Positions 16,559-50,739 of a stretch of DNA of 64,000 bases are shown here, one piece after another. Origin of the DNA: Candidatus Spongiihabitans sp. (GTDB lineage: Bacteria; Pseudomonadota; Gammaproteobacteria; Arenicellales; Poriferihabitantaceae). The translations under genes were made by a program, and so were the position numbers. The first letter of the stretch is position 1, and every line of letters starts with the position of its first letter. A model generated the notes under the pieces. The model made no database searches. It was not told the DNA's origin and saw only the letters and a list, made by a program, of their open reading frames with translations. The DNA lies in the NCBI RefSeq assembly GCF_965247905.1, contig NZ_OZ252047.1, positions 196,938 through 260,937 on the forward strand, in the 5' to 3' direction.

Positions 16559-16823
16559 GAGATCAGGGTCAGAGTAGAAATTATTGGGGCTTGGGACCAG
16601 GTTTTTCTGGCTTCACTCTTCGTTGATAAAGTTGTTCAACTTGCTCCTTAAACCTTGCACTCCCAAATGCCATACAGCTATTTGTTGCATTTCTCAAATC
16701 ATCAACTAGTTCAACGTTAAAAATATCTTCAAACAAATCCCGATACTATACAAACATTACATTTTCAACGAATCAATTTGCTTAATTTTCTTAACAAATA
16801 ATTTCTACTCTGACCCTGATCTC
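16559..16823. mobile_element. MITE-A copy 1 (about 265 bp, about 25-bp terminal inverted repeats)
   Basis: GAGATCAGGGTCAGAGTAGAAATTATT ... AATAATTTCTACTCTGACCCTGATCTC. A near-identical copy lies at 26319-26598. No ORF. It abuts the ATL start codon. Confidence 0.75.
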
Positions 16824-16835
16824 TCTGGTCTCTCA

Positions 16836-17073
16836 CCGGCAATAACGCGGTGATGACGCAAGTCTGGATCGCGCTGTGCGTGTATTTACTCTTGGCGTTC
16901 ATCAAATTCCAGTCGTGGCTGGGCAAAAGCATGCGACAAATGCTCCGCCTGTTGCATCCTGACTTGTTCGACAAGCGCGACTTGATGGCGCTCTTGCGTG
17001 GCCACCCGCCCCCCAGGCCCGGCTTCAATCGCAATCAATCCTCGTTGCTGTGAAAGTTAATGGGACAGCAGTG
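16836..17073 (+). pseudogene. IS4-family transposase 3' remnant plus IS terminus (copy 1)
   Basis: Encodes NNAVMTQVWIALCVYLLLAFIKFQS...GFNRNQSSLL. It is near-identical to 25620-25866. The shared terminus ...CTGTGAAAGTTAATGGGACAGCAGTG ends at 17073. Confidence 0.75.
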
Positions 17074-17295
17074 ATATGGATTACAATGCGTTCTTGTCCA
17101 GCTTAATTCACCATAACATTTATTCTCCAGCCTGGAGATAATCTTTCTTTTTCCCGAAAGACACGCGATGTCGGGGCGGCCGTAATGCGGACCAATCTTA
17201 AACGTTGTCTTTACCCTTTCCTTGGAACGCTCTTCTCTTTCTTCTTCGCGATAACGAGTAACACCTTCACACTTTTTTTTCAGATACTTGTACAT
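17035..17295 (-). CDS. Small Cys-containing hypothetical protein, last gene of the kinase operon; 3' end apparently truncated by the IS4 terminus
   Basis: The ATG at 17295 lies 4 nt downstream of the kinase stop. The last 12-13 codons are encoded by the IS4 end sequence. No recognisable family. Confidence 0.3.
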   Translation of the reverse strand: MYKYLKKKCEGVTRYREEEREERSKERVKTTFKIGPHYGRPDIACLSGKRKIISRLENKCYGELSWTRTHCNPYHCCPINFHSNED

Positions 17296-17299
17296 TGCT

Positions 17300-19705
17300 T
17301 CAGTCCTTACCGCCGTTTCTTTTAAGCAGTTTTTCCACTGTAGTACTCCCTGTTTGCTTCGCGAAATGCAACGGTGTTTCGCCATAATCATTTGTCGCGT
17401 TTATATCCGCACCGTTTTGAATCAGTAGTGCGGCGACTTTGCCCGCATCTTTCAACGCGGCATGATGCAACGGCGTGTAGCCTTTGTTATTTTTCGCGTT
17501 TATATCCGCACCTTTTTGAATCAGTAGTGCGGCGACTTTGTCCGCATCCTTCCACGCGGCAACATGCAACGGTGTGTCGCCATCATCACGTTTCGCGTTT
17601 ATATCCGCACCTTTTTGAATCAGTAGTGCGGCGACTTTGTCCGCATCCTCCACAGCGGCATAATGCAACGGTGTTGCGCCAGAACCATTTTTCGCGTTTA
17701 TATCCGCACCTTTTTGAATCAGTAGTGCGGCGACTTTGCCCGCATCCAGCCACGCGGTAAAATGCAACGGTGTTGCGCCATCATCACGTTTCGCGTTTAT
17801 ATCCGCACCTTTTTGAATCAGTAGTGCGGCGACTTTGTCCGCATCCTCCACAGCGGCATAATGCAACGGTGTTGCGCCAGAACCATTTTTCGCGTTTATA
17901 TCCGCACCTTTTTGAATCAGTAGTGCGGCGACTTTGCCCGCATCCAGCCACGCGGTAAGATGCAACGGTGTTGCGCCATCATCATTTTTCGCGTTTATAT
18001 CCGCACCTTTTTGAATCAGTAGTGCGGCGACTTTGCCCGCATCATCCCGCGCGGCACCATGCAACGGCGTTTCGCCATATTTATTTTTCGCGTTTATATC
18101 CGCACTCTTTTTAATCAATAGTGCGGCGACTTTGCCCGCATCATTCCACGCGGTAAAATGCAACGGTGTGTCGCCAGGACCATTTTTCGCGTTTATATCC
18201 GCACCTTTTTGAATCAGTAGTGTGGCGATTTTGTCCGCATCATTCGCCGCGGCATAATGCAACGGTGTGTCGCCATCCCTATGCCAGCCATCATAATTCC
18301 TCCCGAACAAGCGCGGTGTTGTCTTCAATCCATCTGTCATGAGTTTGTTATCGGATTTTAATTTGGCATCCACCTTGGCGCCGGATTGCAACAGATGCTC
18401 CGCCAGCGTTGTGAAGTTCAACGTGGCAGCGTAGTGCAAGTCAGTCCAGTCGTTAGCATCCTTCGCCGTCGGCGAAGGCGGACGCCCGACCTTTGCCATA
18501 AATTGGGCAGTTTCATCGGCGAGGCGGGCGGCTTGTTCAGCAGCGATTCGTTGTTTTTCTTCCTCGGCGGCGATTCGTTGTTTTTCTTCATCGGCAGCAA
18601 TACGCTGTTGTTCTTGTTCAGCAACGATTCGTTGTTGTTCCTGCCATTTTTGATAGTGATTGCCGCCAAAAAACAACGCAGTAAACAGCAACAAAACGGC
18701 TATTATCACCAGCGGTTTTTTATGCGACGGGCGGGCTTCCGGTTTGGGGTTTTGCGGTGACGGAGGTGTGGCGTCGGGGGCTGTGCTAGGCACGGGGGCG
18801 GTGTCGACCGAAGGGCTTTCACCACCAAGCATCCGCAACCATTGCCCGACATCCTGCGGACGGTCTTTGGCATTTATCGATAAAGCGGATTCTATCGCCG
18901 CGATAAATTCGCCGCTGTAGCCTTCCGCCGACAATCGCGTCATCGGGTCCGGATTGCCAGTCGCCACTTCGGTGATACGCCAACTGCCTTCGGGCGGAGG
19001 GTGCCCGCTGATGGCGCGATACAACACCGCAGCCAGCGCGTATATGTCCGTGTATGCGCCCTGTCCGCCGCGCGTGGAATACTGCTCTGGCGGCGAATAA
19101 CCGGCTTTGACTATCGCGCTGATGCTGCGGCTACGTATCCCTATGGCTTGCCGCGCGGCACCAAAATCCAACAGCACCGGGCTGCCATCGGCACGGATGA
19201 TGATGTTGTCCGGCGAGATGTCGCGGTGCAATAATCCATCGGCATGCATGTGCTTGAGGGCATCCAGCAACGGGGCGATTATCGCGCCCAATGCGGGTTC
19301 GGATGGCGGTTGCGACAACGATTGCAGGTGCGCTTCGAAGCTCAAGCCGTCTTCGTAATCCAGCACCATATACGCGGTGTTATTGTCCTCAAAAATTTGA
19401 TGTACGCGCACGATGTTGGCGTGTCGAAATTTGGCGAGGTTGCGCGCTTCTTCCAAAAATCGGTCCAAGCCCCAGCGGTAATCTTCTTCATTACCGGCCG
19501 ATTTTGGATGCACGGTAACCCCCTCGCGCATCGCGAACTCGTTCGGCAGGTATTCCTTGACGGCAAAGCACGCGTGCAGGTCGGTGTCTTCCGCCAAATA
19601 GGTGACGCCGAAACCGCCTACGCCTAATACCGACAAGATTTCATATTGCCGCAACCGAGTTTCGGGCGGCAGTGCGGCTTTGTGTTCGGGGTCGGAGTGT
19701 TGCAT
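17300..19705 (-). CDS. Ser/Thr protein kinase - TM - coiled-coil - 11x ankyrin repeat protein
   Basis: Hanks kinase motifs (GVGGFGVTY, AVKEY, HRDISPDNII, DFGAAR, SPPE). Pro-rich linker. One TM helix (KKPLVIIAVLLLFTALFFGG). EQQRIAA 9-aa repeats. Then 11 ANK repeats (G.TPLH.AA....KVAALLIQKGADINAKN). Confidence 0.9.
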   Translation of the reverse strand: MQHSDPEHKAALPPETRLRQYEILSVLGVGGFGVTYLAEDTDLHACFAVKEYLPNEFAMREGVTVHPKSAGNEEDYRWGLDRFLEEARNLAKFRHANIVRVHQIFEDNNTAYMVLDYEDGLSFEAHLQSLSQPPSEPALGAIIAPLLDALKHMHADGLLHRDISPDNIIIRADGSPVLLDFGAARQAIGIRSRSISAIVKAGYSPPEQYSTRGGQGAYTDIYALAAVLYRAISGHPPPEGSWRITEVATGNPDPMTRLSAEGYSGEFIAAIESALSINAKDRPQDVGQWLRMLGGESPSVDTAPVPSTAPDATPPSPQNPKPEARPSHKKPLVIIAVLLLFTALFFGGNHYQKWQEQQRIVAEQEQQRIAADEEKQRIAAEEEKQRIAAEQAARLADETAQFMAKVGRPPSPTAKDANDWTDLHYAATLNFTTLAEHLLQSGAKVDAKLKSDNKLMTDGLKTTPRLFGRNYDGWHRDGDTPLHYAAANDADKIATLLIQKGADINAKNGPGDTPLHFTAWNDAGKVAALLIKKSADINAKNKYGETPLHGAARDDAGKVAALLIQKGADINAKNDDGATPLHLTAWLDAGKVAALLIQKGADINAKNGSGATPLHYAAVEDADKVAALLIQKGADINAKRDDGATPLHFTAWLDAGKVAALLIQKGADINAKNGSGATPLHYAAVEDADKVAALLIQKGADINAKRDDGDTPLHVAAWKDADKVAALLIQKGADINAKNNKGYTPLHHAALKDAGKVAALLIQNGADINATNDYGETPLHFAKQTGSTTVEKLLKRNGGKD
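17380..18260. repeat. 99-bp-period tandem DNA repeats encoding ankyrin repeats, including a near-perfect 198-bp duplication
   Basis: Units at about 17563-17760 and 17761-17958 are almost identical. The antisense track ORFs 17374-17760 and 17770-17958 end in identical 55-aa strings. Confidence 0.85.
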
Positions 19706-19719
19706 GGGGGAATTATAGT

Positions 19720-20553
19720 TTATGGTGCGGCAAAAACGCCCAGCAAAATTGGCGCAACCAAAGAGCTTTGTGTTTCCGTATATCGCCCTTTTCCGGCATC
19801 TTTGAGTTGCCGCAAAAACCGCTTGACCTCATCACCATCACCATCGCTGGTATTGACGGTGGTCACCGATCTTTTATCAATCGCCGAAAAACGCCGCGCG
19901 CCCGAAAGAATCGCGTTCTCCGTTCCGGGGTGCGGAACATCATCGGTTACCACCACAATCGTTTGTATTTCTGATTCGGTTCGCCACGGCGATTTCAGCG
20001 CCAGCTCAAAACCGCCCCCCAAATTCTCACCATCAGTGTCGTTATTGCCGTCGCCGCCACCAGCAGTAATCAGCACCAGGGCAGATTGTAAAGTTTTCAA
20101 TGAACTATCGGATGCGCTGATTTTTTGCAGTCGGAAGTAGGTATATCGCGCCGGATTTATGCCCTTGTCGTTAAAACCGATGATGCCAATCGCGACTGAC
20201 GGGGCGAGTTTTTCCAGCACTTCCGCCAAGTTACCCAACTCTTGTTTTAACGCGGCTATCTCTTCGCTCATGCTGCCGGTGGTATCCAACACAATCACCA
20301 CGTCCAAAGGTGGCAGTTGATGTTTTGGGGATTTCTTCAATTCACTAATCTGTGCGGCTTGCTGCGCTATGGTTTGCTCTTTTTGGTAGAGTTCGGTTTT
20401 GAGGGCGGCGAGTTCCTGGCGCAAATCAGGGACTTCTTTTTTATAGTATGGCAGGGCGATGACCGCAATAAGAATAAACGCCCCCATTGCCGATGCGAAC
20501 AAATCCAACGCCGACATGCTGAATATTTCCAGCCCTTTGCTGCGGCTTCTCAC
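19720..20553 (-). CDS. Membrane-anchored coiled-coil von Willebrand factor A (vWA) protein with an ExbD/TolR-like N-terminal anchor
   Basis: N-terminus RSRSKGLEIFSMSALDLFASAMGAFILIAVIALP is one TM helix with an Asp at its start. It is followed by a coiled coil (LRQELAALKTELYQKEQTIAQQAAQISELK) and a vWA domain with MIDAS-like VIVLDTTGSMSEE and VVVTDD. The GTG start overlaps the PP2C stop (GTGA). Confidence 0.8.
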   Translation of the reverse strand: MRSRSKGLEIFSMSALDLFASAMGAFILIAVIALPYYKKEVPDLRQELAALKTELYQKEQTIAQQAAQISELKKSPKHQLPPLDVVIVLDTTGSMSEEIAALKQELGNLAEVLEKLAPSVAIGIIGFNDKGINPARYTYFRLQKISASDSSLKTLQSALVLITAGGGDGNNDTDGENLGGGFELALKSPWRTESEIQTIVVVTDDVPHPGTENAILSGARRFSAIDKRSVTTVNTSDGDGDEVKRFLRQLKDAGKGRYTETQSSLVAPILLGVFAAP

Positions 20554-21347
20554 GGGCTGGGGGGCGGTTTTATTGCAAGCACAGTAACATTATCCTGATG
20601 TGGCGCACCCCGGGATTCTGTTTTTGCTACCAATGCGGCGGTGATATCGCTTGCGGTTTGTTGGCGCATGGAGTGCAGACAATCGGCGATTTCATCCTGC
20701 GTTAATGTGAGCAACCCATCGCTGGCCACCACAATTATCGGCGGAGCGGCACCATCCCATGCAATGCTGTTTTCGTCAACCAGCGCAATATCTTCACCCA
20801 TTAAAGCGGAACGCAAGGCATGCCGTTGTGAGTTTATTTTCGCATCTTCGCTCGATATTTTGCCTTCCATCACCGCTTGGTCCAACAACCCCCCCAGAGA
20901 ATGGTCGGCATTAATCTTTTGTAGCTGTTCGTCCATAAATATATATAAAAGCGAGTCACCAACGCTAATCCAGTGCAATGTGTCGTTATGGAGTAGTGTC
21001 GCAATCAATGTGCAGCCCATGCCGGTTAGTGAATTGTCTTCGCGTATTTTTGCGGCTAATGCACAGTTTGCCGCATGTAGCATATCCGTGGAAAGTTGTG
21101 GAATAGTACTTTCATCACATGACGCAGAAAAAGAAGAAATAAACTCTTTTACGGAAATTTCAGCAGCATCCGCGCCGCCCGCATGTCCACCCATGCCGTC
21201 TGCCAGCACCGCCAGCGTAGTGTTGGCATTGACCGGAAAGAATGCGTAAAAATCCTCCTGGCGCTCACGTTTCCCCTGTGCCGCACAACCTGAAAAATCT
21301 TTTTCTCTTTTCAGGACAGGTCTTCCCAATCGAAATCTGCGCCGCAA
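20550..21347 (-). CDS. PP2C-family Ser/Thr protein phosphatase
   Basis: PP2C motifs RERQEDF, VLADGMGGHAGG, VGDS, VVASDGL. The exact start is uncertain because the TTG at 21347 overlaps the upstream FHA gene by 37 nt. Confidence 0.9.
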   Translation of the reverse strand: MRRRFRLGRPVLKREKDFSGCAAQGKRERQEDFYAFFPVNANTTLAVLADGMGGHAGGADAAEISVKEFISSFSASCDESTIPQLSTDMLHAANCALAAKIREDNSLTGMGCTLIATLLHNDTLHWISVGDSLLYIFMDEQLQKINADHSLGGLLDQAVMEGKISSEDAKINSQRHALRSALMGEDIALVDENSIAWDGAAPPIIVVASDGLLTLTQDEIADCLHSMRQQTASDITAALVAKTESRGAPHQDNVTVLAIKPPPSP

Positions 21348-21784
21348 AACGGCACGAGTTGCAATACGGTTTTCCCCATTTTAATTTCATCGCCATGCTT
21401 GATTTCTCGCGGCTCTAACACAGGATCCTCGTTCAAGTAGGTGAGATTTTTTCCGTGACCGTGGCGTAGGTAAAACTTTCTGCCACGACCGTCATAAATC
21501 ACTTCGGCTTGATTTTCGCGTGCGATTTCGCTGTCGTTCACATCCAAGCAAACTGCGCAGTCCGCCGCCCGACCAATAATATTGACACCGTAGTGCAACG
21601 GAAAACTTTTTCCTCTTCGAGAACCGGAAACAGCCACCAACCAGCCGGTAACCGGCTCCAAATCTTCACTTTCGTTGCTTTCAGAAGGTGGTCGGTAAAC
21701 GGTGGTTTTCGGAGCGTCTGGGTTTTTCTTTTCGGGAGCGCTGCGGCGCAACATCCGCGTGGTATTTTCGGGATTGTCGGTCAT
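21311..21784 (-). CDS. FHA-domain protein (disordered Pro/Glu/Thr-rich N-terminus plus FHA)
   Basis: FHA core: GWLVAVSG...GKSFPLHYGVNIIGRAADCAVCLD...SEIARENQAEVIYD...FYLRHG...NLTYLN...GDEIKMGKTVLQLVPF. Confidence 0.85.
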   Translation of the reverse strand: MTDNPENTTRMLRRSAPEKKNPDAPKTTVYRPPSESNESEDLEPVTGWLVAVSGSRRGKSFPLHYGVNIIGRAADCAVCLDVNDSEIARENQAEVIYDGRGRKFYLRHGHGKNLTYLNEDPVLEPREIKHGDEIKMGKTVLQLVPFCGADFDWEDLS

Positions 21785-21796
21785 GAGTTTTACCTA

Positions 21797-22624
21797 TTAG
21801 TTCTTGTAAAGCCGATTGACAAGATTGTCAAGACAATACTGTACGCAGGTATTGAGCACGCTTTCTTCTTCGCCTTGCACGGCATGAAAAAAGAACACTA
21901 AAATCGACGCTTGAATCAACGCCAGCAAAGTAGTGTTAAACGCGACCGCCATTTTATTGGTGAGCTGTGACACGAAGTTGACACATTCGGGAACGCCCTC
22001 GCCACCGGCATATGCCAACGCATATGCGATGCCGAACACCGTGCCGATAAATCCGAGCGTGGGAATGAGCCACATGACATAGCGCAAAAAGTTATAACGT
22101 AGATCCAATTCATGTAAAAACAACTCGGCACTGGAGTTAAGCAGGCTGTTGGCTTGGTCAACCGCTCGCGAAGATTGAAACTGCAAAATGACACGCTTCG
22201 CCATACGTGGCAAAAAAGAAACGGCGGGGCGTGCGGTTAGCGTGCGATATATCTCGGGTAGCTGGGCGGCGGTCAGCACTGTTTCATCGTCCTCCGGCAA
22301 CAACCCTCTGTCGCATTCGGCGCGGTCATTTTTCGCCGAACGCAGACGCTTTGTTAATTCTCCCAAGCCGCCAAAAAATAAAATCCACATTAAATTTTGC
22401 AATGAGATTGGATAAAATTGAAATTCCCGGTCAATCAGCAATGCACCGATAAGCGACTCTTTCTGGTCGCCCAATAAAGGACTTTCAACGACACATTCCG
22501 GCGGCAACTCTCCGGTGGATATATTTTTATTTTCAAGCGGCAACCAGAAATGCAGCAATATCACGAACAACAATCCGATAACACCACCTCCGGCAAATCC
22601 AACAATTGTTTGGGCTGGACGCAC
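21797..22624 (-). CDS. MotA/TolQ/ExbB-family proton-channel-like membrane protein
   Basis: The C-terminal signature LRYVMWLIPTLGFIGTVFGIAYA...MAVAFNTTLLALIQASILVFFFH matches the conserved MotA_ExbB TM pair (..P.LGLLGTV.G....AL.TT..GL..A). An N-terminal TM helix is present. Confidence 0.8.
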   Translation of the reverse strand: MRPAQTIVGFAGGGVIGLLFVILLHFWLPLENKNISTGELPPECVVESPLLGDQKESLIGALLIDREFQFYPISLQNLMWILFFGGLGELTKRLRSAKNDRAECDRGLLPEDDETVLTAAQLPEIYRTLTARPAVSFLPRMAKRVILQFQSSRAVDQANSLLNSSAELFLHELDLRYNFLRYVMWLIPTLGFIGTVFGIAYALAYAGGEGVPECVNFVSQLTNKMAVAFNTTLLALIQASILVFFFHAVQGEEESVLNTCVQYCLDNLVNRLYKN

Positions 22625-22626
22625 GT

Positions 22627-23016
22627 TTATTTTTTTATAATCTCGCCGGTGATCGGGTCGCGTTTAACTGTGGCGGATGAGTTTATTGGATCGGCTGTTT
22701 GATTTTGTGGCGGAGGCGATACTTGCGAAAGAACTGCCATCGCTTCGGTCGAACCCGCCAACAACTGATGAACGACGACGACATATTCGCCCAACATCAT
22801 CATCGTTTTCGGGGTGATTGGATGCGGTCCGTGAACCGGTTGCCATTGCCCGTCAACGCGAATTTTGGTTCCGTTCGCGCTGTTATCATCCGAAACAAAC
22901 ATCTGATCCCGCGAATACAGGGTAATAGTGCAGTGCAATCGGCTGACCGTGCTATTGGAGACACGAACCAAACAACTCTCGGCACGCCCGACAGTCACTA
23001 CGATGGGTTCATTCAT
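22627..23016 (-). CDS. Small FHA-domain protein, first gene of the operon
   Basis: FHA core VTVGRAESCLVRVSNSTVSRLHCTITLYSRDQMFVSDDNSANGTKI. Its stop lies 2 nt before the MotA-like start. Confidence 0.85.
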   Translation of the reverse strand: MNEPIVVTVGRAESCLVRVSNSTVSRLHCTITLYSRDQMFVSDDNSANGTKIRVDGQWQPVHGPHPITPKTMMMLGEYVVVVHQLLAGSTEAMAVLSQVSPPPQNQTADPINSSATVKRDPITGEIIKK

Positions 23017-23139: not shown

Positions 23140-23367
23140 CCAAAGCGCGCGCATGCACAAAAAAACCATCCAAGCAAATTGTGTGGACGCTCCGAAACGA
23201 GAATCTCTTTTTGGTTTAAGGATGTGATCCAGCCCCAGGTTCCCTTGAGGCTACCTTGTTACGACTTCACCCCAGTCATGACATACCGTGGTAATCGTCC
23301 TCCCGAAGATTAGACTAACTACTTCTGGTACTCCCATGGTGTGACGAGCCATGGTGTGGTGGGCGGG
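23140..23367 (-). pseudogene. Orphan decayed fragment of a 16S rRNA gene 3' end (about 150 nt) plus the beginning of the 16S-23S ITS
   Basis: 23217-23367 reads TAAGGATGTGATCCAGCCCCAGGTTCCCTTGAGGCTACCTTGTTACGACTTCACCCCAGTCATGA...CTCCCATGGTGTGACG. This is the reverse complement of the universal 16S 3' end (1492R site intact). The anti-SD is mutated (GGATG for GGAGG) and there is an 8-nt deletion. Below 23217 is ITS-like GTCCACACAATTTGCTTGGAT (minus strand). Confidence 0.75.
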
Positions 23368-23918
23368 AATGGTTTGACCCGCCCATAATAAAACGCCGCC
23401 GGCCTGACCTGCTTCAAGCGCACCAGCCGGGCCAGGATGCGCCCAACCGTGCTGATGCTGAGAAGCAGACCCTGATCCCTGGACAACACCTTCCAGAGCT
23501 TGCGTTTGCCCCACAAGGGATAACGCCTGCGCAAGTGCAGCACTTGTTGCTCCTGCCGCGCTGTCCATTGTCGACCGCGCACGCGCTTTGGGCGACGGCT
23601 TTGATCTTCTAAGCCGTTCCAGCCATGCTGTTGATAACGCTCTAGCCAACGGTAGTAGGTCGCCTTCGGCCAGCCGATGGTTTTCAGGCATACGTCGTGC
23701 AGCCTGCTGATTTGAGCTCGGCATAGAGTTCCAGTTTCTTTATTCGGGCGATGGCGGGTTCACTGGCGGTGTCGGCAATCGCCCAACTGCGGCATGATTT
23801 GATACGCAGGCTTTTGATCTGCATCGGGTAGTCTCCTGTGATTTAAGTGAATTGATTTCACCTTAGACTACCCGATTTTCTTAACTAATAAAGTCTCATT
23901 TGTGTCTGAGCCCGGACA
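23368..23918 (-). mobile_element. IS481-family element, truncated copy (left end plus about the first third of the transposase)
   Basis: About 95% identical by eye to 31730-32275, including the terminal GTCTCATTTGTGTCTGAGCC(C/T)GGACA. Homology stops at about 23370, where the rRNA fragment begins. Confidence 0.75.
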
Positions 23919-24022: not shown

Positions 24023-25063
24023 ATGACTAACAAACTGGAATACGATCTGGTAGGGATTGCGGAAATTGCTGAAATTGCAGGAATTTCCCGGCAGGCCGTG
24101 GTTAATTGGCGCGCCAGATTCCCAAATTTTCCTGTTCCAGCTGTTGAACTTAAATCCGGGCCGGTTTTCCGGCGATCACAAATCCGTGCATGGCTACACG
24201 CCAGGAGGTTTCCAATGGCACATATAATTTCAACTATTAATCTTAAAGGCGGGGTTGGAAAGACCCACACCACTGTGGCATTAGCCGAGGTGTATTCGGC
24301 ATCGTTTAATAAAAAGGTGTTGGTTATTGATTTGGACCCGCAGACCAACGCCACTATAATGCTCATCGGCGAAGAGCGATGGAGTGAGTTGAACGAGAAT
24401 GGTTATACCTTGGCGAGGTTATTCAAAGATGCATTGAACCCCGACACCGCTACTTTCGACATTGAGAAGACCCTACAAAAACGCGTGTCTGATGTGCGGG
24501 CGGCTAACTCGATAGATCTCTTGCCCTCCAGTTTGGATTTGATAGATGTGCAGGATCGATTAGCCACCGTGCCATCGGGTAAATTTTATGCAGTTAATCC
24601 AATTGAGCTTTTGAGTAGGGCTGTGAAACCTATTGTTGACGATTACGACATTGTGCTAATTGATTGTCCTCCGAATCTCGGGATTATCACCTTGAACGGT
24701 TTGCGTATATCCAGTGGTTACATTATCCCCACTATTCCAGACATCCTTTCGACATATGGTATTCCGCAAATCATAAAACGGGTGAAGGAGTTCTCCAAAC
24801 AAATAGCCGAGCCCATTGATCCGTTAGGTATAGTGATTTCCAAGTATCGCGAACAATCGAATGTACATCGGAACACTGTAAAGCGGCTAGGTGACAATTT
24901 TGATGCACCGCTGTTTCATACCATTATTAAAGAGAGTAATGATCTTGCGAGTGCTGCGGAATACGGCTCTACTAACACCTTGAAGCAAAAGTATAGTTAC
25001 CATGGGCTGGTAGAAGTATACGAATCTTTGGCAACAGAAATTTTGGGAGCGTTGGGAGAATGA
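24023..25063 (+). CDS. HTH-fused ParA/Soj-family ATPase
   Basis: N-terminal excisionase/MerR-like HTH (IAEIAGISRQAVVNWRARFPNFP...FRRSQIRAWL). This is followed by the deviant Walker A NLKGGVGKTHT, DLDPQ, and Walker B VLIDCPP. Confidence 0.85.
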   Translation: MTNKLEYDLVGIAEIAEIAGISRQAVVNWRARFPNFPVPAVELKSGPVFRRSQIRAWLHARRFPMAHIISTINLKGGVGKTHTTVALAEVYSASFNKKVLVIDLDPQTNATIMLIGEERWSELNENGYTLARLFKDALNPDTATFDIEKTLQKRVSDVRAANSIDLLPSSLDLIDVQDRLATVPSGKFYAVNPIELLSRAVKPIVDDYDIVLIDCPPNLGIITLNGLRISSGYIIPTIPDILSTYGIPQIIKRVKEFSKQIAEPIDPLGIVISKYREQSNVHRNTVKRLGDNFDAPLFHTIIKESNDLASAAEYGSTNTLKQKYSYHGLVEVYESLATEILGALGE

Positions 25064-25437
25064 ATATCACAAAACCGCTAAAATCTTTTATGAAGGTCAT
25101 CGTCGATGAGGTCGGACAGAATCCTGAATTTGCCAAAAAAATTGCTATGGCTCTTGGGTTGGGTGAAGCCAAACGATACTCCGAACAGCAAGCAAAAAGG
25201 CGTAGTGGGAGGCGCACTCCAGCAGTGTTGGACCCGGTGGTATTGGTCAGCGAAGGAAGCGGAGAATTGCGAAAGAAACTTGATTCATTGGGTCTTGAGC
25301 AATTGCGAGATATCGTGGCTGAGTGTGGTATGGATCCGGGGAAACTTGTCATGAAATGGAAAAACAAAGAGCGAGTCATTGACCATATCGTTGAAGTGGC
25401 GAGTGCTCGATCTAAAAAGGGTGAGGCGTTCCGGTGA
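25060..25437 (+). CDS. Small basic partner protein with a C-terminal HeH/Rho_N-like motif (possible ParB-analog adaptor)
   Basis: ATGA overlap with the parA-like stop. Basic stretch KRRSGRRTP. C-terminal LEQLRDIVAECGMDPGKLVMKWKNKERVIDHIV resembles SAP/HeH nucleic-acid-binding helices. Confidence 0.55.
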   Translation: MNITKPLKSFMKVIVDEVGQNPEFAKKIAMALGLGEAKRYSEQQAKRRSGRRTPAVLDPVVLVSEGSGELRKKLDSLGLEQLRDIVAECGMDPGKLVMKWKNKERVIDHIVEVASARSKKGEAFR

Positions 25438-25439
25438 AA

Positions 25440-25866
25440 AGTAATCACTATTTCTCATGAAGCAACACTTTAAGCACTTGCTCGCGCAAGCGGTGGACGA
25501 GTTGTGTCGGCAGGGCGTGTTGGAGCAGGGCGCGGATGCGGTTGCCGACCTTTATCAAGCGCGTTGGCAGGTGGAATTGTTCTTTAAGTGGATCAAGCAA
25601 AACCTGAAGATAAAGTCCTTCATCGGCGCCGGCAATAACGCGGTGATGACGCAAGTCTGGGTCGCGCTGTGCGTGTGTTTACTCTTGGCGTTCATCAAAT
25701 TCCAGTCGCGGCTGGGCAAAAGCATGCGACAAATGCTCCGCCTGTTGCATCTTGACTTGTTCGACAAGCGCGACTTGATGGCGCTCTTGCGTGGCGACCC
25801 GCCCCCCAGGCCCGGCTTCAATCGCAATCAATCCTCGTTGCTGTGAAAGTTAATGGGACAGCAGTG
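25440..25866 (+). pseudogene. IS4-family transposase 3' remnant plus IS terminus (copy 2)
   Basis: Contains the DDE C-terminal Y-2-R-3-E-6-K signature (LYQARWQVELFFKWIKQNLKIKSF). It ends with the same terminus as copy 1. Confidence 0.8.
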
Positions 25867-26071
25867 GTTGAGCAACTGCTCGCCGTCCTCCTAATCCGAG
25901 ACGAGAAGTACAGAAGAATAAAAGCTTTTTTACAGTCAAAATACTTGCTTACGGTACGGAAATAACTTTCAGAATGGAGTAGCCTTCAGCAAATAATCGC
26001 CGCTCACATCCAATTATTTATTCTGTATTGAGGTAACCCTCATTGGCACGCAAAAATGCGATTGCAAGTTC

Positions 26072-26318
26072 ATGAACAAACTTGATGACACACTCGATGA
26101 AATCATCTATCTGGCGCGGGAATATGGTTTAGTTCTGCGTGGCGTATTTTGCGTCAATGAAGATGACAATGTGCCAGAAATCGCCGAGGGCGTTCACGCA
26201 TCAACGCTGATTTTATTTGGTAATGCGGGTTCTTCGTTTTGGGAATGTTTTTCAGGCTCGAGAGAGGTTGCTGATGGTCAGGCCGACCCATTGAACCGGT
26301 GGAGTCAAAGAGTGGGCG
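26072..26318 (+). pseudogene. 5' fragment of a hypothetical gene truncated by MITE-A copy 2
   Basis: The ORF reads MNKLDDTLDEIIYLAREYGL...DPLNRWSQRVG and then runs into the MITE terminal repeat. Confidence 0.4.
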
Positions 26319-26598
26319 CAGATCAGGGTCAGAGCGCAGATCAGGATCAGAGTAGAAATTATTGGGGCTTGGGAGCAGGTTTTTCTGGCTTCACTCTTCG
26401 TTGATAAAGTTGTTCAACTTGTTCCTTAAACCTTGCACTCCCAAATGCCATACAGCTATTTGTTGCATTTCTCAAATCATCAACTAGTTCAACGTTCAAA
26501 ATATCTTCAAACAAATCCCGATACTATACAAGCATTACATTTTCAACGAATCAATTTGCTTAACAAATACAAATAATTTCTACTCTGACCCTGATCTC
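26319..26598. mobile_element. MITE-A copy 2 (left terminal repeat partially duplicated)
   Basis: Near-identical to 16559-16823. The left end shows CAGATCAGGGTCAGAG followed by CGCAGATCAGGATCAGAGTAGAAATT. The right end is AATAATTTCTACTCTGACCCTGATCTC. Confidence 0.75.
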
Positions 26599-32488: not shown

Positions 32489-33487
32489 TCAGTCCAGTTC
32501 TGTCAGGTTCACAGTGCGCCTTTGCTGCAACGACAACAACGCGGCTTCAGCAAGCATCAATGCCCGCAGGCCATCGTCCAGGCCTGGCAGCGTTACCGCT
32601 TCGCCCATCAAGCAGCGCACAAAACCATCCAGTTCAGCCCGGTAGGCGGCTGCGTAGCGTTCGCGAAAAGAAGACAATGTCTTGGCGCTGCGGACGCCAG
32701 ACTGGTTATACGCCACGACTGTATTTTCATTGACATTTTGCGCGACCAGCATGCCGTCGGAGCCATGCACCTCAATGCGTTGGTCGTAGCCAAAACTGGC
32801 GCGTCGGCTGTTTGAAATCTGCACCAGTTTTCCGCTCGCGCTAGTCATCGTGATGACCGCAGTATCCACATCGCCCGCTTCGCCGATCGCCGCATCCACC
32901 TGACAGGCGGCCTGGGCGCTGACGCTTATCATTTCCTCGGCTAACAGGAATCGAGCCATATCGAAATCGTGGATGGTCATGTCGCGGAACAGGCCTCCAG
33001 ACGTTTTAATGTACTCCACCGATGGCGGCGCCGGATCCTTGGAAATGATGCTCACCAGTTCCACCGCGCCGACGCCACCGGCCTCAACCCGTTGCTGCAA
33101 AGCCTGGAAGTCAGGATCAAAACGACGATTAAAGGCAACCATGATTTTACAGTTGCTTTGCGAAACGCGTTGCACACACTGCCGCGCTCGTTGCAGCGAC
33201 AGGTCGATGGGCTTTTCGCAAAACACATGCTTGCCCGCTGCGACCGCCTGCTCGATCAAATCGGCATGGGTATCGGCAGTGGAACAAATCAGAACCGCGT
33301 GAATGTCGTCGCGGGCAAAAATCTGTTGCGGCGTCATCTGTTCGCAGCCGAGTTCGCCGGCAAGCCGGTCTGCATTGACCTGCAAGGGATCGTAAAGCGC
33401 CGCTATCCGCGCATGACCGTTTTTGGCCACATTGCCGCCGTGGATCGAACCGATGCGGCCAGCGCCCAATAAAGCCATATTGATCAT
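32489..33487 (-). CDS. iolG: Inositol 2-dehydrogenase
   Basis: Gfo/Idh/MocA fold (LLGAGRIGSIHG, FCEKP). Located in an iol operon. Confidence 0.85.
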   Translation of the reverse strand: MINMALLGAGRIGSIHGGNVAKNGHARIAALYDPLQVNADRLAGELGCEQMTPQQIFARDDIHAVLICSTADTHADLIEQAVAAGKHVFCEKPIDLSLQRARQCVQRVSQSNCKIMVAFNRRFDPDFQALQQRVEAGGVGAVELVSIISKDPAPPSVEYIKTSGGLFRDMTIHDFDMARFLLAEEMISVSAQAACQVDAAIGEAGDVDTAVITMTSASGKLVQISNSRRASFGYDQRIEVHGSDGMLVAQNVNENTVVAYNQSGVRSAKTLSSFRERYAAAYRAELDGFVRCLMGEAVTLPGLDDGLRALMLAEAALLSLQQRRTVNLTELD

Positions 33488-33495
33488 AAATGCGC

Positions 33496-34395
33496 CTAGT
33501 CAACTATGGCATAACCGGCGGTTAATGCGACCTGCTTAAGCGCTTGGTAGCCGATGCAGGCGTATTCGTAAGGGTCGGCTTTTGCAGGATCCTGCTCGGC
33601 CTCGACGATGATCCAACCCTGGTATTTAATGTCAGCCAGCGCCTGCAACACCCGGTTATAGTCGATAATGCCGTCCCCAGGCACCGTAAAAACTCCCCTC
33701 AGCACGCAATCCAGAAAAGAGTCCTGCTCCCGGTCGACCGCTTTGAGCACTTCCGCACGAATGTCTTTGGCATGCACATGGTTGATGCGATGCCCGTAAC
33801 GTTCGATGACAGCAAGAATGTCGCCGCCGGCAAATAACAAATGCCCGGTATCAATCAACAGCCCCAGAGCATCTCCGGTATGGGCCATGGTCAGATCCAG
33901 CTCGCGTTCGGTTTCCACGCCGCTGCCCATATGGTGATGAAAAGCCAGCGCAACGCCCTGGCTGGCACAATACTCCGCTAGCCCGGTGAGTCGTTCCCCA
34001 TAGGCCGCAAACTCGGAATCCGGCAACACCGGCTTATTGACTAATGGCTCATTCTGGCGGTTCTGTACGGTGGCATAAGTTTCACCATAAACCAGCACCG
34101 GGGCTGCCAGAGCCGCATACAACTCGAGCTGCGGCGTGACCCGCTCCAGCTCATTCTTTAGCGTATTGTTAAGCAAAAGACCCGCATACCATCCGGACAC
34201 CAGCTTGAGATCGTGTTCGCTCAGCACCTTTTCGAGGGCTGCCTGGTCCTTGGGAAACTTGCCGCCAAGCTCGGTGCCGGTATACCCGGCCTGGCGAGTC
34301 TCTCGCAGACAGGTTTCAAGGGAAGTCTCGCCGCCCAATTGAGGCAGATCATCGTTAGACCATGAAATTGGAGACATGCCCAGTTTCAGCTGCAT
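33496..34395 (-). CDS. iolE: Myo-inosose-2 dehydratase
   Basis: The N-terminus LGMSPISWSNDDLPQLGG is the typical IolE signature. Xylose-isomerase-like TIM barrel. Confidence 0.9.
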   Translation of the reverse strand: MQLKLGMSPISWSNDDLPQLGGETSLETCLRETRQAGYTGTELGGKFPKDQAALEKVLSEHDLKLVSGWYAGLLLNNTLKNELERVTPQLELYAALAAPVLVYGETYATVQNRQNEPLVNKPVLPDSEFAAYGERLTGLAEYCASQGVALAFHHHMGSGVETERELDLTMAHTGDALGLLIDTGHLLFAGGDILAVIERYGHRINHVHAKDIRAEVLKAVDREQDSFLDCVLRGVFTVPGDGIIDYNRVLQALADIKYQGWIIVEAEQDPAKADPYEYACIGYQALKQVALTAGYAIVD

Positions 34396-34399
34396 CTTT

Positions 34400-35251
34400 T
34401 CACTGCGCTTTATTTAACAGCCATTCATGCGCCGGGTCATTGGCAAAACGCCATGCGCGAACCGGTCCGGCCATGACGTTAAGATAGTAGCTGGTATAGC
34501 CATGCGGCACGCCTACCGGGTGGTAGCCTTGCGGCACCAGCACGACATCCCGGTCCTCCGCGCTAACGGTTTCATCCAGACTGCGATTATCCGTATATAC
34601 CCGCTGATGGACATAACCGCTTGAGGGATTTAGGCGATGATAATAGGTTTCCTCGAGTTGGCTTTCCTCAGGCAGGGCATTTCTATCGTGCTTATGCGGC
34701 GGATAGGAAGACCAGTTCCCCGCAGGCGTGATCACCTCTACCACCAACAGACTATCGGCCGGTTGGCTTTCCGGCAGGATGTTGCGCACGTAGCGGGTGT
34801 TGGAACCTTGGCCGCGAACCTCCTGAGACATCATGGCTTCATCAATTATTCGCGCTGGTCCGCTATTACCCTGATTATTACTCTGGCCATTATTCCGGTC
34901 GTTATTCCGGTCGTTATTCTGGCCGGGAGCGCTGCACACCGCTAATTCCACCGCCGTATCGGCCAACACCTCGGCACTGGCGCCCGCAGGCACATAAACA
35001 ACGCCCGGAGCCTGTTCATCAAACACAGTGCTGCGACCACCCACGCCATTCCAGCGTTGTTCGCCCACCTTAACGCTGGCGCTGCCCGAGAGCACGACCA
35101 GACAGAGTTCGCGACCGGCCTGCTGCAGGCTCAGAGGCTGTCCCGCTTGAACATCATAAAGCTCAAATCCGACGTATTTCCAGCCAGCATTTTGCGGCGT
35201 AATCTGGTGCACTCGCTGTGCTTTGGCGGGCTTTATCAATAACCGACTCAT
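34400..35251 (-). CDS. iolB: 5-deoxy-glucuronate isomerase
   Basis: IolB signature NWSSYPPHKHD...LPEESQLEETYYH...GYHPVGVPHGYTSYYLNVMAG. The ATG at 35251 overlaps the iolD stop. Contains a low-complexity insert NNDRNNDRNNGQSNNQGNSG. Confidence 0.85.
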   Translation of the reverse strand: MSRLLIKPAKAQRVHQITPQNAGWKYVGFELYDVQAGQPLSLQQAGRELCLVVLSGSASVKVGEQRWNGVGGRSTVFDEQAPGVVYVPAGASAEVLADTAVELAVCSAPGQNNDRNNDRNNGQSNNQGNSGPARIIDEAMMSQEVRGQGSNTRYVRNILPESQPADSLLVVEVITPAGNWSSYPPHKHDRNALPEESQLEETYYHRLNPSSGYVHQRVYTDNRSLDETVSAEDRDVVLVPQGYHPVGVPHGYTSYYLNVMAGPVRAWRFANDPAHEWLLNKAQ

Positions 35252-37089
35252 TAGTAACCTCTTTCCTGTTGACGACTGACCACGGCTGATTTGTGCTTTT
35301 CCAATACTTCGTTGCGCACTGAAACTTCCGGAACTTCCACCTCCCACCAGCAACCCCCCGGTGAAGCCGGCAGCGGGTCAGTATCGATAACCACCACACT
35401 GACGCCAGCGCGCTTCGAAGCCGCGCTGACTGCGGCCTTGAGCGCTCCGATATTAGCCGCTTTTTCGGCATGAGCGCCCATCGCAGCGGCATGTGCGGCA
35501 AAATCGATTTCGGCCAGACCCTTATTATGCGTATCACACAGCAGATTGTTAAAATTGGCCCCGCCAGTGGCCATCTGCAACCGATTGATACTGCTATAGC
35601 CGCGGTTATCCAGAATGACAATCGTAATCTGCAGGCCCAGGCTCACCGCCGTGGCGACATCGGAATTCATCATCAGGTAAGAGCCGTCTCCGACCATCAC
35701 CACAACGTCACGCTCAGGTTCAGCCAGCTTCACGCCAACGCCGGCGGCGATCTCGTATCCCATGCACGAGTAACCGTATTCCAAATGGTATCCGCCCACT
35801 GCGACACTGTTCCAGTGCTTGTGCAGTTCAGCCGGCAAACTCCCCGCGGCCGCCACCACCACGGCATTGTCAGCGACGCTCTGGTTAACCGCGGCCACAA
35901 CCTGCGCGTCACTCGGGATGCTCGTGTCATTCGCGGCTGAGACAAGATTCTGCTGAATCCCGATCCATTCCGACCTGAGCTGATTCGCATGTGCAAGCCA
36001 GTCAGCGCTTGCGCGGTAGCCATCCAGATTTTCAGCTAGTGATTGCAATCCCAGTTTGGCATCGGCAACGCAAGGCATGGCGCGGTATTTGGCGGTGTCC
36101 ATGGGTTGCACGTTAAGTTGAACCACTTGGCACTTAAACAAACTGTTAGAGCCGGAAATGAAATCCTGCAAGCGGGTGCCGACCGCGAGCACCAGATCGG
36201 CTTCGCGTGCCAGCGTGTTGGCGCAGGCCACGCCGGTCACGCCAACCGCGCCGAAATTGAGGGGATGTTCAGCCGGCAAGGATGATTTGCCGGCCTGGGT
36301 TTCGATAACCGGTATCTGGTGGGTCATGGCAAAAACCTGCAATTCGGCCTCGGCACGAGAATAGCGCACTCCACCTCCGGCAACGATAACCGGTTTGCGA
36401 GCGGCCTTGATGGCGGCCAGTGTTTGTGCCAACTCGTAACGGTCGGGCGATTGTCGACGCAATGCCCATATTCTCTTTTCAAACAGGGCTTCAGGATAAT
36501 TGAAGGCTTGGCATTGCACATCCTGACAGATACTGATAGTGGCAGGACCGCACAGTGCGGGATCGGTCAGTACTACCATCGCTTTTGGCAGCGCCTGAAT
36601 TAACTGCTCGGGCCGAGTAATACGATGGAAATACCGACTCACCGGGCGGAAAACATCATTGACGGTAACACTGCCGTCGCTAAAGTCTTCGATCTGCTGC
36701 AAAACCGGATCCGGCAACCCCGATGCGAACACATCGCCGGGAATCAGCAAAACCGGAATTCGGTTTACGTGGGCCGAGGCGGCCGCGGTCACCATGTTGG
36801 TCGCCCCCGGACCGATTGAGGAAGTCGCCACCATCACCTGTTGACGCCGACGCGCCTTCGCAAACGCGATGGCGGCATGGGCCATGCCCTGTTCATTGTG
36901 GCCACGATAGGTCGGCAACTGATCCCGTGCCTGAAATAATGCCTCGCCAATGCCGGCCACGTTGCCATGGCCGAAGATCGCCCAGACACCGGCGAATAAA
37001 GGCGGCTCAGCGCCATCGTCGAGGCGCACAAATTGCTGGGTTAAAAATCGCAACAGGGATTGTGCGGCGGTAAGACGAATGGTTTTCAT
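35251..37089 (-). CDS. iolD: 3D-(3,5/4)-trihydroxycyclohexane-1,2-dione acylhydrolase (ThDP enzyme)
   Basis: 612-aa ThDP-dependent fold. The N-terminus RLTAAQSLLRFL...FGHGNVAGIGEAL is typical of IolD. Confidence 0.9.
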   Translation of the reverse strand: MKTIRLTAAQSLLRFLTQQFVRLDDGAEPPLFAGVWAIFGHGNVAGIGEALFQARDQLPTYRGHNEQGMAHAAIAFAKARRRQQVMVATSSIGPGATNMVTAAASAHVNRIPVLLIPGDVFASGLPDPVLQQIEDFSDGSVTVNDVFRPVSRYFHRITRPEQLIQALPKAMVVLTDPALCGPATISICQDVQCQAFNYPEALFEKRIWALRRQSPDRYELAQTLAAIKAARKPVIVAGGGVRYSRAEAELQVFAMTHQIPVIETQAGKSSLPAEHPLNFGAVGVTGVACANTLAREADLVLAVGTRLQDFISGSNSLFKCQVVQLNVQPMDTAKYRAMPCVADAKLGLQSLAENLDGYRASADWLAHANQLRSEWIGIQQNLVSAANDTSIPSDAQVVAAVNQSVADNAVVVAAAGSLPAELHKHWNSVAVGGYHLEYGYSCMGYEIAAGVGVKLAEPERDVVVMVGDGSYLMMNSDVATAVSLGLQITIVILDNRGYSSINRLQMATGGANFNNLLCDTHNKGLAEIDFAAHAAAMGAHAEKAANIGALKAAVSAASKRAGVSVVVIDTDPLPASPGGCWWEVEVPEVSVRNEVLEKHKSAVVSRQQERGY

Positions 37090-45955: not shown

Positions 45956-46031
45956 TTATTAAAAACCGTAACATCGATAATATAAACAGTTACTGAGGAA
46001 TCCCCAATTTCAGTGCCAATGCCATTGAGAA

Positions 46032-50195: not shown

Positions 50196-50386
50196 GCCCC
50201 GGATTCACTTGACTTCCCGCATAACTAGCTTACCGCCGACAACAACGAGTTTAAAGTGACGTTTGAGGTCTGATTTTTTAACAAGAGGCACCTTACCACG
50301 AGGTTTCGGCATAGCTAACAAAGCGCGGGTGGATTTATCTGTTTGTTTCATTCTTGGCGTTTTGTCAACTTTCCTTGATAGTTCCC
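50171..50386. mobile_element. MITE-B (216 bp) with perfect 25-bp terminal inverted repeats and an 8-bp TSD
   Basis: GGGAACTATCAAGGAAAGTTGACAA (50171-50195) and its exact reverse complement (50362-50386). They are flanked by TTTAATTC at 50163-50170 and 50387-50394. Confidence 0.85.
50205..50351 (-). CDS. 48-aa basic ORF inside MITE-B (speculative)
   Basis: ATG at 50351. Encodes MKQTDKSTRALLAMPKPRGKVPLVKKSDLKRHFKLVVVGGKLVMREVK. Below the track length cutoff and with no family signal. Confidence 0.2.
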   Translation of the reverse strand: MKQTDKSTRALLAMPKPRGKVPLVKKSDLKRHFKLVVVGGKLVMREVK

Positions 50387-50530: not shown

Positions 50531-50739
50531 GGCTTAAACAAATCCTTGTGGGCTAGTCATTCTTAGTCACCTATATATTGGTATCAGATCAGGCAGCATA
50601 CATCTCGCCAACAAGCTGATCGACCGAATGAATTAGATCAATATCTGACACTGAAAAATTTTTTTAGTTTTCCTCTTCTGGCAGTTCTTTTAGGGCTTCA
50701 TTTAATCCTCTGTAAGGCGCAAAAGCCTCTCGGATAATC

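Follow-up and report, generated by a model that had tools for sequence, protein, structure and literature searches.

A TolQ-like channel subunit and a membrane-anchored vWA protein are co-inherited with a Hanks kinase and FHA proteins in a conserved bacterial locus

An operon in the genome of Candidatus Spongiihabitans sp. (Arenicellales), a sponge symbiont, combines a predicted TolQ/ExbB-like proton-channel subunit and a membrane-anchored vWA protein, presumed to be its motor partner, with a receptor-type Hanks Ser/Thr kinase, a PP2C-type phosphatase and two FHA proteins. It lies at positions 17035–23016, on the minus strand, of a 64,000-nucleotide stretch of DNA that we refer to throughout as the window. 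Here we establish the domains, folds, invariant residues and gene coupling of this operon, and show that the channel (ring) subunit, its partner with an Asp-bearing transmembrane (TM) helix, the FHA proteins and the kinase are near-universally co-inherited in related loci. We propose, with a probability that we put at roughly 55%, that the locus encodes a 5:2 motor or force transducer that is driven by the proton motive force (PMF), carries a periplasmic vWA arm with a metal-ion-dependent adhesion site (MIDAS) and is gated by the kinase, the phosphatase and the FHA adaptors. The system is real and conserved and its motor core was already predicted in 2025; the near-obligate coupling of that motor to Ser/Thr phospho-signalling appears to be unreported.

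Known 5:2 proton motors drive flagella, gliding, TonB-dependent uptake, Tol–Pal envelope maintenance and Zorya defence, and we know of none that is controlled by Hanks-type phosphorylation. In our literature search, no paper connected Hanks kinases, PP2C and FHA proteins to proteins of the MotA, ExbB or TolQ type. The co-inheritance described here points to an unrecognised coupling of membrane energy, periplasmic binding and cytoplasmic phospho-signalling and, if that coupling is real, it would constitute a new mode of control for this class of motor.

The motor itself has a precedent. The study 'Origin and Evolution of Bacterial Periplasmic Force Transducers' (Mol Biol Evol 2025; PMC12204202) predicts 5:2 motors composed of a TolQ-like protein and a vWA protein with a transpore helix (TPH-vWA), the latter modelled with AlphaFold 3 (AF3) inside a TolQ-like pentamer, its Asp ringed by Thr, and states their function to be unknown. 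The terms 'kinase' and 'phospho' have 0 occurrences in that paper, and neither phosphatases nor FHA proteins are mentioned. The original prediction for the window, made from its sequence alone, had proposed that the system was undescribed; this fails for the motor pair, which the 2025 study predicts, and holds for the link to kinase, PP2C and FHA, which is absent there. For the TPH-vWA motors, the phospho-module is a functional clue.

A channel subunit with a predicted TolQ/ExbB fold

The product of the second gene of the operon matches Pfam MotA_ExbB (PF01618) over residues 149–251 (42.3 bits; cut-off, 22.9; E = 7.5e-11) and is predicted to have three TM helices. When its AlphaFold2 (AF2) model (predicted local distance difference test (pLDDT), 86.9; predicted TM-score (pTM), 0.83) was compared with the PDB using Foldseek, the top 21 matches were all TolQ or ExbB chains, with a probability of 1.0; such chains occupy most of the top 50, with MotA, PomA and ZorA ranked lower. 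TM-scores, normalised by query and by target, lie at approximately 0.4–0.7, with target-normalised values of up to 0.71. By sequence, the family is remote from the solved motors, the best match being to MotA with E = 0.4. The MotA/ExbB assignment, for which the original prediction had named a hidden Markov model (HMM) search as the test, is upheld by both the HMM match and the predicted fold.

The Pro, Gly and Thr residues that line the channel in the last two TM helices are conserved: P188, G191, G194, T195, T231 and T232 are invariant in 22 homologues, and the motif P188-x-x-G-x-x-G-T195 aligns with 'PTMGIIGTV...AVAF' of MotA. The same homologues conserve a cytoplasmic loop, L109-P-E-D-x-E-T115. 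On the basis of the profile match and the modelled fold, we regard the protein as a TolQ/ExbB-like proton-channel subunit that presumably assembles into a pentameric stator ring. One public gene call starts it 20 residues late (255 amino acids (aa), P0001; region 22565–22624, minus strand). We favour the longer GTG start because TM1 is conserved in homologues; the NCBI protein WP_424947186.1 shares this 275-aa start.

The ring family, a distinct and compact group, is found at 472 loci in 185,579 species genomes and, at E<=1e-30, forms 205 clusters at 50% identity among 1.84 billion representatives. We analysed the best 80 of the 472 genomic loci, which come from Alpha- and Gammaproteobacteria, Latescibacterota, Rhodothermales and Bryobacterales. 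Linkage was counted in the 48 loci that extend for 5 kb or more to either side of the ring gene (full loci), a component being scored when it lay within 8 kb, and neighbours were counted from gene-by-gene maps of six loci and from profile searches.

An invariant Asp in the membrane helix of the vWA protein

The vWA protein (TM-vWA) begins with MRSRSKGLEIFSMSALDLFASAMGAFILIAVIALPYY: a brief basic stretch leads into the only TM helix, which has D17 in its interior. The helix segment that bears Asp17, 'SMSALDLFAS', contains no His and lacks the SHLS/His motif. Across 96 partner proteins from 80 loci, S14, D17, A20 and F26 are invariant (96/96), and the helix is 50–66% identical across phyla, compared with about 25–30% for the remainder of the protein. 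Of the 80 related loci, 67 have a partner of this kind no more than 8 kb from the ring gene. Genes for ExbD, TolR or MotB were absent from the six loci mapped gene by gene and were not recurrent among 109 further neighbour open reading frames (ORFs) from 14 diverse loci.

The inner subunits of 5:2 motors carry a characteristic acidic residue, namely D32 in MotB, D25 in ExbD and D23 in TolR. Because the TM-helix Asp is invariant and the protein is in the constant company of a TolQ/ExbB-like gene, we read TM-vWA as the inner subunit, a presumed dimeric equivalent of ExbD, TolR or MotB. The original prediction had seen a proton-channel protein without a partner and a vWA domain on its own membrane anchor. 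The anchor is confirmed, but it is more than that: the helix bears the invariant Asp expected of an ExbD/TolR/MotB-type subunit, and TM-vWA supplies the partner that seemed to be missing.

Beyond the helix, the protein matches Pfam VWA_2 (31.5 bits; cut-off, 27) and VWA (29 bits; cut-off, 23.8), and a Pfam vWA domain is detected in 64 of the 96 partners. The MIDAS residues D90-T-T-G-S94 and D204 are present, with D90, S94 and D204 invariant. In the AF2 model (pLDDT 86.1), which was built with database homologues, a helix spanning residues 11–72 runs through the membrane into a stalk that ends at about residue 73 (some 40 residues, ~6 nm) and is followed by an alpha/beta domain, which Foldseek matches to the integrin beta-I and CMG2 vWA domains with E of about 1e-8. 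In public gene calls, the protein begins at Met13 (265 aa, P0122; region 20518–20553, minus strand); the longer GTG start is favoured because 'R-x-R-E-I-N-I-F-S' is conserved in homologues.

Motor and phospho-signalling genes are inherited together

The association of this motor pair with a phospho-signalling module extends well beyond the window. Of the 48 full loci, 47 encode an Asp-helix partner, 46 a Hanks kinase, all 48 at least two FHA ORFs (median three) and 25 a PP2C. In 66 of 72 related loci, the ring gene is immediately preceded by an FHA ORF of the same strand. The original prediction had staked its claim on finding the kinase module in other genomes alongside the MotA-like and TM-vWA genes, and these counts bear it out. 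They revise the position of PP2C, which it listed as a component: the phosphatase is present in the window and is clade-specific in the family rather than part of its core.

Gene order varies between lineages. The window-type order is FHA, TolQ-like, FHA, PP2C, (protease-TM-FHA), TPH-vWA, kinase; alphaproteobacterial loci have kinase, FHA, TolQ-like, TPH-vWA, FHA, TPH-vWA; and in Lysobacterales two partners are followed by FHA, TolQ-like, X-TM-FHA and kinase. The kinases of related loci are all single-pass, and differ in their ectodomains (Ank, FGE-sulfatase, beta-helix, Sel1 or YARHG), with ankyrin ectodomains in the window, in locus L003 and in the Latescibacterota loci L070, L071, L076 and L080. 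Accessory proteins encoded elsewhere in the family combine a signal peptide, a trypsin-like or M4 peptidase domain that is predicted to be periplasmic, a TM helix and a cytoplasmic FHA domain. Such protease-TM-FHA proteins occur in L040, L045, L056, L070 and L083, with none in the window; at L040 (6246–9329) the arrangement is a PP2C-TM-M4-TM-FHA fusion. A CHAT-TPR protein adjoins the genes in three related loci, and the window has none. The families that recur among the 109 other neighbour ORFs are FHA (15), Trypsin_2 (5), M4 peptidase (3), CHAT (3), LRR, collagen and TPR, and no others.

A search of 72,556 plasmids recovered the ring gene on one, and none of 50,697 phage records contained it. 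The sole plasmid record, pRlBT01d of Rhizobium leguminosarum BT01 (L084, 154417–173055), is a 1.33-Mb conjugative megaplasmid that carries PP2C, FHA2, kinase, FHA1, TolQ-like and Asp-helix partner genes followed by a 1610-aa ORF, in a host that is genetically tractable. Besides Rhizobium leguminosarum, by way of its megaplasmid, the cultured hosts of the family include Alishewanella tabrizica, Alteromonas stellipolaris, Vibrio chaetopteri, Pseudomonas sp. WN033 and Defluviicoccus vanus.

Predicted writer, eraser and readers of phosphothreonine

All domains named in the original prediction (two FHA, MotA/ExbB, PP2C, vWA, Hanks kinase and Ank) score above their Pfam cut-offs. The kinase (Pkinase, 106 bits; cut-off, 31.7) has a cytoplasmic catalytic domain at residues 1–300 and a predicted TM helix at 331–349, followed by a Gln/Glu-rich repeat segment, which we read as a coiled coil, and an ankyrin array (Ank, 240 bits) that is predicted to be periplasmic. 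Its catalytic motifs are G-V-G-G-F-G at residue 30 (GxGxxG), A-V-K-E at 48, HRD160 and DFG180. Eleven TPLH-type motifs give the array 11 repeats, the number first proposed. Within 17266–18357 (minus strand), a repeat search found nine in-register copies of a 99-nucleotide (nt) tandem unit, and their 85–90% identity at the DNA level implies a recent expansion of the array by unequal recombination.

The phosphatase matches Pfam PP2C_2 (46.4 bits; cut-off, 24), keeps the metal-binding Asp motifs and scores 140.6 bits against the NCBIfam Stp1/IreP model, under the equivalog cut-off of 230. Judged by their motifs, the kinase and the phosphatase both look active.

FHA1 (Pfam FHA, 38.5 bits; cut-off, 20.7) has the canonical phosphothreonine-binding residues G10-R11, S25-R-L-H28 and N48-G, and ends in a motif, R-[ND]-P-x-T-G-[ED]-I, that is conserved across phyla in 46 orthologues (here R-D-P-I-T123-G-E-I). 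FHA2 scores 41.5 bits against the same Pfam model and 37.3 bits against Yop-YscD_cpl; its orthologues (n = 38) share an N-terminal Thr with a hydrophobic residue at +3 (here T9-R-M-L) and a C-terminal F-x-W (here F-D-W). Many bacterial FHA domains prefer pT-x-x-(I/L/V), and GarA and OdhI have self-regulating Thr tails. With their hydrophobic +3 residues, the Thr motifs of FHA1 and FHA2 fit this preference and would resemble the GarA and OdhI tails.

Relation to described machines

The loci analysed here share with the motors of PMC12204202 a tolQ-like gene without tolR or exbD, an adjacent vWA gene (the partner of 47 of the 48 full loci) and a vWA protein whose N-terminal TM helix has a conserved Asp and no SHLS/His motif. 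The vWA genes of that study are 'predominantly' heterologous pairs, whereas the window has a single copy; many of our related loci (alphaproteobacterial and Lysobacterales) have such pairs. The published family, whose example is from Idiomarina, matches in its described features and is probably the same one; the named top hits of our family searches include no Idiomarina protein.

With ExbB–ExbD, TolQ–TolR and MotA–MotB, the pair has in common the three-TM fold, the Pro/Gly/Thr channel motifs and a partner with a single N-terminal Asp helix. It differs in that the periplasmic domain of the partner is a vWA domain, in place of the TolR/ExbD fold or OmpA-like peptidoglycan-binding domain of those motors, that there is no third subunit of the TonB or TolA type, and that it is linked to Ser/Thr phospho-signalling. 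In the Agl–Glt gliding machine of Myxococcus (AglRQS, GltG and CglB), a TolQ/TolR-like motor is likewise combined with FHA proteins and a vWA domain, and a published model places the FHA domain of GltG against the cytoplasmic side of the AglR pentamer, which is TolQ-like (PMC11761067). Its FHA domain, however, is fused to a TonB-like transducer and its vWA domain resides on an outer-membrane lipoprotein; more than 17 of its components are absent here, and the Agl–Glt locus has no dedicated Hanks kinase or PP2C.

The kinase, PP2C and vWA genes had suggested the logic of the threonine-phosphorylation pathway of the type VI secretion system (T6SS; PpkA–PppA–Fha1) or of the TerY-P triad. The domain vocabulary is indeed the same, with writer, eraser and reader alongside a vWA domain, but that domain sits here on the motor subunit, whereas in PpkA it is part of the kinase and TerY is soluble. 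Membership of the T6SS pathway was rejected on the TagH score (30.1 bits; cut-off, 120) and the lack of T6SS families nearby or among the recurrent neighbours, and membership of the TerY-P triad on the Asp-helix that anchors the vWA domain in the membrane, the lack of ter genes and the absence of PP2C from 23 of the 48 full loci. As the original prediction stated, the 30 larger ORFs of the window that we scanned contain no T6SS, ter, flagellar, Tol or TonB domains. Nor is the gene set habitually found beside T6SS or ter loci: neither family occurs in the six mapped loci or recurs among the 109 neighbour ORFs of the 14 diverse loci.

Zorya, too, uses a MotAB-like pair for a purpose outside flagella and transport. 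The resemblance that had been noted extends to the shared MotA/ExbB homology and no further, as the match to ZorA is weak (E of about 6e-4, 16.7 bits) and the ZorA tail, ZorB and ZorC/D are missing; membership was rejected because the ring protein, at 275 aa, has no tail, its partner ends in a vWA domain and nuclease or helicase effectors are lacking. A search with PADLOC, which the original prediction had recommended, matched no system model. The actinobacterial fhaA-fhaB-pstP-rodA-pbpA-pknA-pknB operon similarly interleaves two FHA genes, a PP2C and Hanks kinases with the genes of a membrane machine, in that case RodA/PBP peptidoglycan synthesis and not a TolQ-like motor. FHA2 is closest to the FhaB/FipA and OdhI NCBIfam models but falls under their cut-offs (46.6 versus 125); on these scores and the different machine, membership of that division operon was rejected.

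A phosphorylation-gated motor as the proposed mechanism

We infer a 5:2 stoichiometry and a topology in which the ankyrin and vWA domains are placed outside because the kinase domain is inside. The TolQ/ExbB-like protein would form the outer ring and TM-vWA the inner subunit, with the Asp17 helix sitting within the ring as a proton-binding 'transpore' helix. The helical stalk would project the MIDAS vWA domain into the periplasm, where it may take hold of a protein ligand so as to pull or rotate it.

On the signalling side, we infer the phospho-acceptor sites, the gating of the motor by phosphorylation, the direction of control and the nature of the vWA ligand. The single-pass receptor kinase would read an extracytoplasmic cue through its lineage-variable periplasmic domain (ankyrin here) and phosphorylate cytoplasmic targets, for which the Thr tail of FHA1 (T123), T9 of FHA2 and possibly the L-P-E-D-x-E-T115 loop of the ring are candidates. 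FHA1, translationally coupled to the ring gene, may then dock on the phosphorylated sites and so engage or release the motor, and PP2C would reset the switch. As its output, the motor may exert force on a ligand in the envelope or relay mechanical signals between the ectodomains encoded with it. At this level, the description first given to the locus, a PMF-coupled envelope phospho-signalling system, is a fair one, and domains, fold and co-occurrence agree with it.

A more specific form of the proposal, which we advance tentatively and consider unlikely as it stands, is that the locus encodes the first stator-type 5:2 proton motor in which engagement is directly gated by reversible Ser/Thr phosphorylation, the FHA adaptors acting as a clutch on the TolQ-like ring and the vWA domain exerting force on a periplasmic ligand. 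If this is true, that ligand could be the ectodomain of the co-encoded kinase or protease, making the whole a mechanically driven trans-envelope signalling device, and the ankyrin ectodomain may tune the system of this sponge symbiont to a host-derived signal.

Several observations weigh against a phosphorylation-gated motor. For the Asp-helix, an alignment to E. coli TolR using hhalign gave a probability of 0.3; a 44-column profile of the helix had no match in the PDB at E<=10, a single helix being too short for such statistics; and its only match to known partners was a weak one to the PADLOC ZorB1 model (residues 10–66, E = 0.039). Because sequence methods detect no homology to TolR, ExbD or MotB, the partner assignment rests on the invariant Asp, synteny and the published modelling. 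For the switch, PP2C is absent from 23 of the 48 full loci and the residue at +3 of T115 in the ring loop is not conserved among homologues. In FHA2, moreover, the Ser and His of the phosphothreonine pocket are replaced by Ala and Gln: residues 87–92 read I-A-R-E-N-Q in the window and I-A-R-E/H/R-N-Q across the window, L003 and L006, as against I-S-R-x-x-H in the other orthologues. Because the pocket Ser and His are lost, FHA2 may here be a substrate or scaffold rather than a phosphothreonine reader. Finally, the locus lies amid insertion sequence (IS) debris and adjoins a fragment of 16S ribosomal RNA (rRNA).

Alternative functions and the state of the window copy

The alternative that survives best, although we still think it improbable, overlaps with the gated motor and differs by naming an output: a machine for surface adhesion, gliding or envelope tethering, in which the motor moves or tensions a ligand associated with the outer membrane or peptidoglycan through the vWA domain and phosphorylation sets only polarity or timing. 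The authors of PMC12204202 propose force transduction, possibly gliding, for the TPH-vWA proteins; in Agl–Glt, a vWA adhesin and the FHA protein GltG are combined with a TolQ-like motor; and FHA1 has a weak NCBIfam match to GltG (E = 0.084). Yet no Glt, Gld, Tol–Pal or outer-membrane components recur among the 109 neighbour ORFs of the 14 loci, a stalk of ~40 residues and ~6 nm would probably not span the distance to the outer membrane, and among the hosts of the family are SAR86, which is planktonic, and a sponge symbiont that is intracellular or extracellular.

Less probable again is an envelope-surveillance or conflict system, anti-phage or anti-invader in the manner of Zorya, in which the motor and vWA arm would sense a perturbation and the kinase and FHA proteins relay it to effectors. 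Some PADLOC models do match: the ring weakly matches ZorA (E = 6e-4), a match limited to the shared channel core; PP2C matches the candidate PDC-M21C (E = 2e-7); and the matches of the kinase to PD-T4-6 and mad6 reflect generic kinase-domain similarity. No system model fits, and the operon has no ZorA tail, peptidoglycan-binding ZorB or ZorC/D/E. The trypsin-like or M4 protease-TM-FHA proteins that are frequent in related loci, and the CHAT-TPR proteins in some, would be candidate effectors, but the protease domains are predicted to be periplasmic rather than cytoplasmic executioners, and the window locus has no effector. The highly variable kinase ectodomains and the IS remnants that bracket the window locus would suit a defence function; against it stand the housekeeping genes that flank the operon and the near-absence of the ring gene from plasmid and phage records, with its single occurrence among 72,556 plasmids and none in 50,697 phage records.

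About as doubtful, and slightly more so, is that the window copy is a remnant, decaying or no longer working, in a symbiont genome rich in IS elements, even if the family functions elsewhere. The segment is flanked by IS4-like remnants, a 124-nt fragment of the 16S rRNA 3′ end and a transposase fragment lie directly upstream, a promoter scan found no promoter-like site upstream of FHA1, and FHA2 has lost two canonical pocket residues. Against decay, all six ORFs are intact, full-length and translationally coupled, and the catalytic and channel residues are preserved. The FHA2 substitutions are common to its nearest relatives, L003 and L006, and are for that reason a clade trait and not a local lesion.

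That the operon is an accessory regulatory module of a machine encoded elsewhere (T6SS PpkA/PppA/Fha1 or the TerY-P triad) is highly improbable, because the shared vocabulary of Hanks kinase, PP2C, FHA and vWA domains and a weak TagH match of FHA1 (30.1 bits) are set against a TagH cut-off of 120 far above that score, the absence of T6SS and Ter families from the 30 scanned window ORFs, the six mapped loci and the recurrent neighbours of the 14 loci, and a vWA domain joined to a TM helix that bears an Asp and is partnered with a TolQ-like gene, a feature that PpkA and TerY lack.

Operon organisation and genomic surroundings

The ORF analysis resolves the region into six tightly packed ORFs and one small ORF (Table 1), arranged head-to-tail on the minus strand with the spacings originally given.

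Table 1 Features of the operon (window coordinates)
Feature	Position	Strand	Details
FHA1	22627–23016	−	129 aa, predicted cytoplasmic; 2-nt gap to TolQ/ExbB-like gene
TolQ/ExbB-like proton-channel subunit (predicted)	21797–22624	−	GTG start, 275 aa; 12-nt gap to FHA2
FHA2	21311–21784	−	157 aa, predicted cytoplasmic; 37-nt overlap with PP2C
PP2C-type Ser/Thr phosphatase	20550–21347	−	TTG start, 265 aa, predicted cytoplasmic; GTGA overlap with TM-vWA
TM-vWA (transpore-helix/coiled-coil/vWA)	19720–20553	−	277 aa; 14-nt gap to kinase
Transpore-type helix codons, TM-vWA residues 10–35, IFSMSALDLFASAMGAFILIAVIALP	20449–20526	−	Asp17 codon 20503–20505
Kinase-TM-ankyrin (receptor-type Hanks Ser/Thr kinase)	17300–19705	−	801 aa; 4-nt gap to small ORF
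Ankyrin array, kinase residues ~410–801	17303–18478	−	99-nt tandem units
Small ORF	17035–17295	−	86 aa; ATG 4 nt past kinase stop

The small ORF, which the original prediction had included in the operon, is probably spurious and not a component of the system: it has zero matches in Pfam, NCBIfam and PADLOC and no tblastn relative across 82 related loci, and it runs into an IS4-like remnant.

Approximately 210 nt upstream of the FHA1 start lies an isolated 124-nt piece of the 3′ end of a 16S rRNA gene (23230–23353, minus strand), which matches positions 1388–1520 of the 1533-position Rfam SSU model with 79.6 bits; no other part of the gene is present. The piece overlaps ORF remains that resemble a transposase helix-turn-helix (HTH) domain (23319–23582), and may be a rearrangement scar or an assembly artefact. 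Two pairs of direct repeats (226 and 238 nt, 98% identical), at 16560–17073 and 25629–26563, enclose the operon together with a ParA-like gene, their order being permuted between the two sides; they consist of the C-terminal remnants of an IS4-like transposase and an adjoining element. Between the operon and the right-hand remnant, at 24023–25437 on the plus strand, are an orphan ParA/MinD-like ATPase (346 aa, AAA_31/CbiA) and a 125-aa ORF without a family match, a pair that points to a partition module of plasmid or island origin.

The 30 larger ORFs scanned across the window are housekeeping, ABC-transport, inositol-catabolism and IS genes. A myo-inositol catabolism cluster, unrelated to the motor operon, lies beside sugar ABC-transporter genes at 32489–39041 (minus strand) and comprises a GFO/IDH/MocA protein (IolG-like), a xylose-isomerase-like TIM barrel (IolE-like), KduI/IolB, a TPP enzyme (IolD-like) and a PfkB-DUF2090 protein (IolC-like). 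Further along, a block of low GC content (44910–52833; ~45–46%, compared with ~55–57% on either side) contains a 1387-aa ORF without a Pfam match (46032–50195, minus strand) between two 325-aa ORFs. Of these, the left one (44910–45887) encodes an HTH_38 domain of the kind typically found in IS30-type transposases and the right one lies at 51856–52833; the layout of the block resembles a composite transposon.

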